DNA from: a virus
Taxonomy: Duplodnaviria > Heunggongvirae > Uroviricota > Caudoviricetes
Length of the DNA stretch: 16,523 nucleotides
Strand: one strand, 5' to 3'
IMG/VR virus record: IMGVR_UViG_2802429251_000002
A program made the position numbers and the translations under genes. Each line of letters begins with the position of its first letter. Positions within the stretch are counted from its first letter, which is position 1. Of this stretch, positions 15,028-15,170 are shown in pieces. The notes under the pieces are model-generated. The model made no database searches and was not told the DNA's origin. It was given only the letters and a program-made list of their open reading frames with translations.

Positions 15028-15170
15028 GTCGCTTTTCCTTATGTTGATTAATTAATCGGTTACAGGATTTTTAAATCCCGCTTTTGCCTGTTTTGTGCGC
15101 GCTTCATATATCGCGGCACGTTTTTTGCTCATTTACGGGATTTGTGAGTCCCGTTTCTGTCTGTTTTTTG
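15028..15170. promoter_or_regulatory. parC-like centromere / promoter candidate with two about 36-bp direct repeats and palindromes
   Basis: Direct repeats at 15062-15097 and 15135-15170 (28/36 identical, 73 bp apart), each with an internal palindrome (GGATTTttAAATCC; GGGAtttgtgagTCCC), plus the perfect palindrome GATTAATTAATC at 15046-15057 just upstream of the parM ribosome-binding site. The second repeat lies inside the 3' end of the replication-gene ORF. Confidence 0.45.

Follow-up and report, generated by a model that had tools for sequence, protein, structure and literature searches.

A putative ParR-binding centromere made of two in-phase palindromes upstream of parM in a P88-like prophage

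The window, by which we mean the whole 16,523-nucleotide stretch of viral DNA analysed here, is 96-99% identical at the DNA level to Escherichia phage P88 and other members of Xuanwuvirus (Peduoviridae). Its early region is P88-like, that is, of the P2 family, and carries rep, then parM, then parR on the minus strand (Table 1). P88 itself is an integrating P2-like phage that encodes an integrase, a C repressor and Cox, and parMR forms the end of its early operon. The product of parM, an actin-like segregation ATPase, matches the Pfam families StbA_N (3.7e-82) and ParM C-terminal domain (1.3e-68). It aligns over residues 2-316 with the structure of R1 ParM (PDB 1MWK, E = 1.2e-92) and is about 46% identical to ParM of R1/R100. 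ParR, in turn, matches Plasmid_stab_B (PF10784, 3.4e-23), the StbB/ParR family, and its best PDB profile match, to the N-terminal domain of pB171 ParR/StbB (2JD3), is of marginal similarity (E = 0.037). The candidate centromere described below most likely belongs to a type II ParM-ParR cassette that closes the early operon of a P88-like prophage.

The end of an IS100kyp element (IS21 family) interrupts rep at the position where P88-type phage homology stops and IS100 homology starts, and the prophage copy in the window probably cannot replicate, rep being cut by this insertion. Downstream of parR lies a gene for an Ead/Ea22-like protein (Pfam 2.1e-32); the cargo between parR and the portal gene varies among relatives, with HicAB, a KAP NTPase, DUF3800 and others in this place, and the stretch has the look of a variable moron slot. 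At least three tandem copies of a 132-nt unit are found upstream of the structural genes; they are 81-85% identical over 207 nt in register and include a perfect 38-mer pair.

Table 1. Features in and around the region between rep and parM (window coordinates)
Feature	Position	Strand	Remarks
rep, P2 gpA-type replication endonuclease gene, 3' part	15104..16447	-	30% identical to P2 A over 747 residues
rep stop codon TGA	15106-15104	-	falls inside the 35-bp spacer between the repeats
IS100kyp (IS21-family) end	16444-16523		interrupts rep at about 16447
Homologue of the P2 nick site, inside rep (likely origin)	15898-15869	-	GCCGCCCCTTGGACTCGTGGCAATAACTGT; encodes AAPWTRGNNC
Distal 38-nt repeat	15133..15170	-	wholly within the last 22 rep codons
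Distal 18-bp palindrome	15136..15153		+ strand CGGGATTTGTGAGTCCCG; gene orientation CGGGACTCACAAATCCCG; family consensus CGGGATT-CACA-AATCCCG
Spacer between the repeats, 35 bp	15098..15132	-	contains the rep stop and an A-run of variable length
Proximal 38-nt repeat	15060..15097	-	intergenic; ends 32 nt before the parM ATG
Proximal 18-bp palindrome	15063..15080		+ strand CAGGATTTTTAAATCCCG; gene orientation CGGGATTTAAAAATCCTG; family consensus CGGGATT-TCAG-AATCCCG
12-bp palindrome in the parM leader	15046..15057		GATTAATTAATC; exact; 18 nt before the parM ATG
Shine-Dalgarno AAGGA of parM	15036..15040	-	read from the sequence; kept in Hafnia, AAGGG in Plesiomonas
parM, actin-like segregation ATPase, 319 aa	14068..15027	-	ATG 15027-15025
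parR, centromere-binding adaptor, 103 aa	13752..14063	-	starts 4 nt past the parM stop
Gene for Ead/Ea22-like protein	13098-13688	-	downstream of parR
132-nt tandem units	401-871		upstream of the structural genes

An earlier note, made from the sequence alone, had described two direct repeats of roughly 36 bp lying 73 bp apart upstream of parM, with palindromes inside them, one repeat within the last codons of the replication gene and a perfect 12-bp palindrome next to the parM start. Each of these observations is borne out, the repeats measuring 38 nt each. The two copies are 30/38 identical (79%) with a start-to-start spacing of 73, and they make up the only direct-repeat family returned by the repeat search. 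In a dinucleotide-preserving shuffle test that took the best 38-mer pair at offsets 39-150 and set the threshold at 30 matches, this value was reached in 0/1000 shuffles of the 401-bp region (maximum 27), in 0/100 of the whole window (maximum 28) and in 0/2000 of the 153-bp AT-rich segment alone (maximum 26). The repeat pair is thus far beyond chance.

Each repeat holds an 18-bp palindrome of the type CGGGATT-N4-AATCCCG. Both palindromes in the window are one mismatch away from this pattern and are its only matches with two mismatches or fewer in the window, while in the majority form among relatives both sites are perfect palindromes with arms of 7 bp. In the 35.8-kb genome of P88, the 18-mer occurs with 0-1 mismatch only twice, at 8730 and 8803 and in both cases upstream of parM; the next-best match there has three mismatches. 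The spacer between the repeats exists as two alleles, GCGCCGCGATATATGAAGCGCGC and GTGCCATAAAACATGAAGTGCGC; a third, degenerate site in it (CGCGATATATGAAGCGCG, 15098-15115, four mismatches) was rejected, as it is absent from the alternative allele. Perfect 12-bp palindromes occur once in the window against 4.2 expected from shuffles, so that the one in the parM leader is not beyond chance by itself. Hafnia and Plesiomonas share its core ATTAATCAA, and one sub-lineage carries a two-sided change to GGTTAATTAACC that keeps the symmetry, a single event and as such an anecdote. A 26-aa mini-ORF on the minus strand (15052-15132; MSKKRAAIYEARTKQAKAGFKNPVTD) was set aside as a by-product of the DNA repeat, through which it mirrors the rep tail; it has no family match, and the reading frames across the repeats differ between relatives. 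In rare relatives, a change in A-run length (site spacing 72) shifts the upstream ORF into the frame of this mini-ORF, and the ORF then ends inside the 12-bp palindrome.

The decisive question is whether the repeats belong to the gene that they overlap or to the genes that they precede. It was addressed with 125 unique 700-nt regions upstream of parM from the P88 family, a sample of limited comparative power in that most relatives are more than 90% identical; ParM searches of viral and genome collections gave no relative below 98% identity, and the divergent ones came from a protein database search. In 103/125 sequences, as in the window, the upstream ORF terminates at -79 relative to the parM ATG; elsewhere it does so at -104, -108, -27, -68, -136, -156, -186 or -254. 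As a result, the distal palindrome is covered by coding sequence in three or more different frames, or by none at all, and in two sequences the ORF spans both sites; the site-to-site spacing nevertheless stays at 73 in nearly all of the 125 regions. Even with a rep that stops short of the distal site, at 136-254 nt from the parM ATG, the repeats are still present with parMR. At one related locus (L042), rep ends as far as 540 nt before the parM ATG, and the frame that enters the distal repeat is that of a separate 155-aa ORF, not rep, which closes with an identical tail, KQTKTGFTNPVNEQKTRSDI. The outer edge of the 38-nt repeat is where homology between this locus and the window sets in.

More distant lineages tell the same story. 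P2-like prophages of Hafnia and Plesiomonas encode a ParM that is 62% identical, again after a gpA-type gene, and their regions upstream of parM cannot otherwise be aligned with the window. Yet each has exactly two GGG-N10-CCC sites upstream of parM, at -128 and -55 in Hafnia and at -131 and -59 in Plesiomonas, which gives a spacing of 72-73 bp for a pattern with a background of one per 2-6 kb. In Hafnia, an unrelated 167-aa ORF covers both sites in a different frame. An exact-pattern scan of viral contigs, moreover, found parM within 260 nt downstream in 113/113 evaluable matches. Both repeats are inherited together with parM and parR as a single module, and the evidence favours an assignment of the repeats to parMR over one to rep. 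The alignment of homologous prophages that the earlier note had called for thus ties the repeats to the partition genes, in the 125 upstream sequences as well as in Hafnia and Plesiomonas, and the case that it had named as contrary, repeats in P2-like phages lacking parMR, was not seen. On the reverse case, rep without parMR, a tblastn search with the C-terminal 249 aa of rep has no power, since it matched only 14 records in the phage collection, all of them with parMR. Because the spacing is kept although the coding frame across the distal site varies or is absent, selection appears to act on its DNA and not on the encoded protein. The variable frame and length of the last rep codons would then follow from read-through into an element that is selected as DNA. 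One remnant is uninformative about function: on the chromosome of E. coli EC7518, a deletion has removed rep and both repeats from a defective prophage, so that parM directly adjoins an early DUF4761 gene and similarity to the window breaks off at about 15062.

The pattern of substitutions among close relatives, scored across 63 unique sequences, points in the same direction. The arms of the proximal palindrome are nearly invariant even though they are non-coding, and two of the four positions at its centre differ in 23/63 (TAAA versus TCAG). Most positions of the distal arms are conserved as well; one of them (T to C) varies in 17 sequences, and one central base varies too. The spacing between sites is 73 in 61/63, with changes in A-run length giving 72 or 74 in rare relatives, and the proximal site lies 35 nt away from the parM ATG in 62/63. 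Such variation fits what would be expected of a dyad-symmetric protein-binding site with a centre that is not contacted.

The candidate for this protein is ParR. Across 31 aligned homologues (52-97% identical), the N-terminal strand TRRISFYLKP with the helices that follow and the C-terminal NIRALFPE are conserved. A layout of conserved ends and a variable linker is expected for a ribbon-helix-helix adaptor with a ParM-binding tail, as in ParR of R1. ParR is accordingly read as a small adaptor with a predicted N-terminal ribbon-helix-helix and a predicted C-terminal ParM-binding tail. An AlphaFold2 monomer model built from the 31-sequence alignment was of low confidence (pLDDT 59), with the N-terminal strand unstructured, and was not used for a fold search. 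Within Escherichia, ParR is 52-97% identical against at least 91% for ParM, and the divergence of ParR is concentrated in a hypervariable linker of about 30 aa.

Across lineages, the sequence of the ParR strand co-varies with the type of site, a suggestive correspondence. Specifically, TRR[IV]SFYL goes with GGG/CCC palindromes in P88, Hafnia and Plesiomonas; NRKISFYL or NRKCSFYI goes with TTTTTCT-type iterons in Serratia and Enterobacter prophages and in IncL/M and IncFIA plasmids; and RRTIAFKL goes with the AAACCC iterons of R100. One E. coli variant has a ParR of just 51% overall identity, with its N-terminus and the sites unchanged. The four P2-like prophages of Serratia and Enterobacter carry a sister phage-borne parMR with a ParM that is 54-58% identical. 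Their upstream element is a long inverted repeat, GGGAACGAAATAGAAAAAT ... ATTTTTCT(A/G)TTTC(G/A)T(T/G)(C/A)CC, with arms about 28-31 bp apart and a core that resembles the iterons of IncL/M plasmids (TATTTTTCT).

The available data are compatible with a model in which the segment 15028-15170 is a parC-type centromere and operator, bound by ParR at two in-phase palindromes in A-tract DNA, and we consider this reading probable. The segment lies directly upstream of parM-parR, the first of these genes encodes an actin-like ATPase, and the two palindromes supply repeated units, four half-sites in all, as potential ParR sites. The geometry is also suitable. The palindrome centres are 73 bp apart, or about 7.0 helical turns, and the half-site centres within each palindrome are about 11 bp apart, as in pairs of ribbon-helix-helix dimers. 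AA dinucleotides in the 146-bp segment have a periodicity of 10.4-10.5 bp that 0/2000 shuffles reach, in keeping with curved, A-tract-phased DNA, although this signal is in part a consequence of the 73-bp repeat itself. An array of short direct iterons is what the segment lacks: by eye, no 11-bp register was seen, and the half-sites are inverted within two palindromes. This is an architectural difference and not a failure of the functional analogy. The label "iteron-like" that the repeats had been given is therefore apt only loosely, in that the units are repeated while their arrangement is that of two palindromes.

According to this model, each palindrome would be occupied by two ParR dimers, which would contact it through their N-terminal strand (TRRISFYL). 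Both complexes would then share one face of the bent DNA, giving a small segrosome with the U shape known from plasmid R1. A growing ParM filament would be captured by the C-terminal peptide NIRALFPE and would push or position copies of the phage genome outside the chromosome. That the distal site lies in rep codons would be due only to read-in, since any upstream ORF continues into the module as far as the next stop, and the ParR complex may also throttle transcription entering parM.

The earlier note had offered a ParR-binding centromere and promoter, a replication origin, or both as possible roles for this DNA. The centromere half of the first proposal is supported by the co-inheritance, the kept geometry, the presence of these sites nowhere else in the phage genome and parM at 113/113 of the scanned matches, whereas the promoter half is not supported: a scan of 14800-15400 found no sigma-70 consensus promoter on either strand. 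Candidates picked by eye are weak in that they lack the -11 A or the -7 T, as does TTCAGA-N16-ATTAAT, which has no -11 A. Transcription of parMR may come through rep from the early promoter. Two further points count against a centromere, namely that there are only two sites (four half-sites) versus ten iterons in R1 and that the element is nearly always chromosomal, with 1441 chromosomal places versus 2 on plasmids.

The closest competitor holds that the palindromes are operators of a regulator other than ParR, be it a phage early or late regulator or a host factor, or that ParR acts there as a roadblock or repressor without any segregation. Dyads of 18 bp are typical operators of dimeric regulators, a promoter within the centromere is not visible, and the element is chromosomally integrated in almost all genomes, all of which would suit such a role. 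However, the sites are found only beside parM and are co-inherited with parMR across lineages that differ in other early genes, and their type follows the DNA-binding strand of ParR. Nor do most family members match the TGT-N12-ACA dyad of P2 Ogr-type late promoters. We therefore hold this possibility to be unlikely.

A function at the level of RNA would make the palindromes hairpins, either as stabilisers or processing sites in the rep-parM transcript or as paired intrinsic terminators of antisense (plus-strand) transcripts. Indeed, the consensus sites of the P88 family fold on either strand into 8-bp stems of about -10 kcal/mol, a T-rich tail follows each hairpin on the plus strand as part of the 38-nt repeat unit, and a terminator scan flags 15135-15154 (+) as terminator-like. 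This antisense match concerns one copy only, however, and a conserved intrinsic terminator, with a GC-rich hairpin and a U-tract, was not found: the proximal antisense hairpin in the window reaches only -3.3 kcal/mol, the sense strand has no U-tract, and the nearest plus-strand operon (terminase-portal) ends 2.5 kb away, at 12607. In Hafnia and Plesiomonas, GGG-N10-CCC and the 72-73-bp spacing are kept, but the hairpins have only 3-4 pairs with 10-nt loops (-4.5 to -6.5 kcal/mol), and a U-tract follows the stems on neither strand. Because the hairpins and U-tract are lost in these lineages, and because an Rfam scan of 14800-15400 at E <= 1 gave no match, an RNA role is ranked low and appears quite improbable.

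Likewise, there is very little to be said for the proposal that the repeats are all or part of a rolling-circle origin recognised by the P2-type A/Rep protein. It draws on the annotation of the P2 record, which places the nick site inside gene A, and on the overlap of one repeat with the 3' end of rep. In P2, however, the nick lies at 29892, at about codon 619 of A and 427 bp before its stop, in the sequence GCCGCGCCTCGGAGTCCTGTCAATAACTGT, which encodes AAPRSPVNNC. The A protein of P2 and the Rep protein of P88 align through this point, and the homologous sequence in the window, 25/30 identical, is found inside rep (Table 1). Since this is where the homologue of the mapped P2 site lies, the likely origin is about 720 bp away from the repeats, and Rep of the window phage would, by homology, nick there. 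Neither a nick-site homologue nor co-inheritance with rep was found for 15028-15170: the repeats have no similarity to the P2 nick sequence, and they persist where rep ends far upstream or another ORF intervenes. The origin alternative of the earlier note is thus not supported.

That the repeat is a recent local duplication without function, as the similar peptides that it yields in two frames (rep tail KKQTETGLTNPV, 26-aa mini-ORF TKQAKAGFKNPV) might suggest, has next to nothing in its favour and is already contradicted by the conservation data. Two copies at an unchanging distance are kept by 125 unique relatives and also by lineages whose ParM is 62% identical, the spacing of 73 is not divisible by 3, and the palindrome arms are conserved while the central bases drift.

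With the ParR-bound centromere as the preferred reading, the question arises of what an integrated phage would partition. The junction upstream of parM occurs in 1304/5426 complete E. coli genomes (about 24%) and is nearly always chromosomal. One 34,461-bp circular E. coli plasmid record, NZ_CP148288.1, is a P88-like genome with rep, parM, parR, terminase and capsid genes, and may represent an extrachromosomal form of the phage or an assembly of induced phage DNA. A tentative proposal, and one that we regard as rather doubtful at present, is that a minimal ParMRC centromere of two palindromes serves P88-like phages on the extrachromosomal copies of their own genome. The cassette might position or separate the monomeric circles that arise from rolling-circle replication after induction, or it might keep a transient plasmid-like carrier state. 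In addition, a distal ParR complex in the 3' end of rep could be a roadblock that links the levels of the partition proteins to rep transcription.

If this proposal were true, it would reveal the use of a plasmid segregation machine by a phage, with a centromere architecture that is undescribed for a ParR-family protein. If ParR binds as suggested, the locus would furthermore offer a compact and easily mutated model for the minimum of ParR sites that can cap a ParM filament. Type II centromeres have so far been dissected in a handful of plasmids, and here the cis site is reduced to two in-phase palindromes, yet its partners are an R1-type ParM and an adaptor of the ParR family. A parC upstream of parM is what a specialist would expect; the novelty lies in its architecture. 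Literature searches found no paper on a P88-type parC, be it on binding, stability or incompatibility.

The closest relatives among known systems are the centromeres of the plasmids R1 and R100. Canonically, parC is located directly upstream of parM-parR (PMC2241845, PMC9426499), and the element in the window shares this position with R1 and R100, next to a homologous ParM and a ParR of the same Pfam family. The parC of R1 consists of two ParR-bound blocks with an unbound 39-bp spacer, and its DNA, which is intrinsically curved, adopts a U-shaped fold (PMC2241845). The window likewise has two repeat blocks with a spacer, of 35 bp in this case, in A-rich phased DNA, and its half-site and flank (AAATCCCGTAAA) resemble the R100 iteron (AAAACCCAAAAA). 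In contrast, each block of R1 comprises five direct 11-bp iterons where the window has a single palindrome. R1/R100 parC, moreover, has a clear sigma-70 promoter (TTGACT-17-TAAACT) between the iteron blocks, R100 and other plasmid parC regions having obvious promoters in this place, whereas the window has no consensus promoter. Finally, R1 and R100 are plasmids, while the host of the present element is an integrating P2-like phage in which the distal block overlaps the upstream coding sequence.

Other plasmid systems differ from the window in much the same way. Their arrays of short direct iterons amount to 10 x 11 bp in R1, 20-bp repeats in pSK41 and 4 x 17 bp in pCW3. The characterised ParR proteins are all reported to bind direct-repeat arrays (PMC9426499). 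With pB171 par1 and pSK41 parC, the window shares a small centromere and a ribbon-helix-helix ParR, as predicted here; ParR of pB171 is reported on just two 10-bp repeats upstream of parM (PMC9426499). The repeats of pB171 and pSK41 are, however, direct and adjacent, unlike the inverted pairs 73 bp apart in the window.

Precedents in integrating elements come from two further systems. In SXT/R391 ICEs, srpMRC is likewise a type II partition cassette in a normally integrated element, where it stabilises the excised, replicating form (PMC4489591), and srpC comprises four direct and inverted 13-bp repeats that are bound as pairs (PMC4489591). The differences are that SrpR has no recognisable similarity to ParR, whereas ParR of the window is a clear StbB/ParR member; that an ICE with conjugative replication takes the place of a P2-type phage; and that binding and stabilisation have been demonstrated for srpC, whereas for the parC of the window they are inferred. 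In the Corynebacterium prophage CGP3, AlpAC and alpS combine an actin-like filament with adaptor binding sites upstream of the operon, and AlpAC is reported to serve phage DNA transport and replication after induction (PMC5539076). The system resembles the window in being a prophage-encoded filament and DNA-binding adaptor with specific upstream sites; it differs in that the actin-like and adaptor families are unrelated and the host belongs to another phylum, so that the analogy is functional only. Taken together, srpMRC and AlpAC are the nearest precedents in integrating elements for the two-palindrome centromere proposed here.
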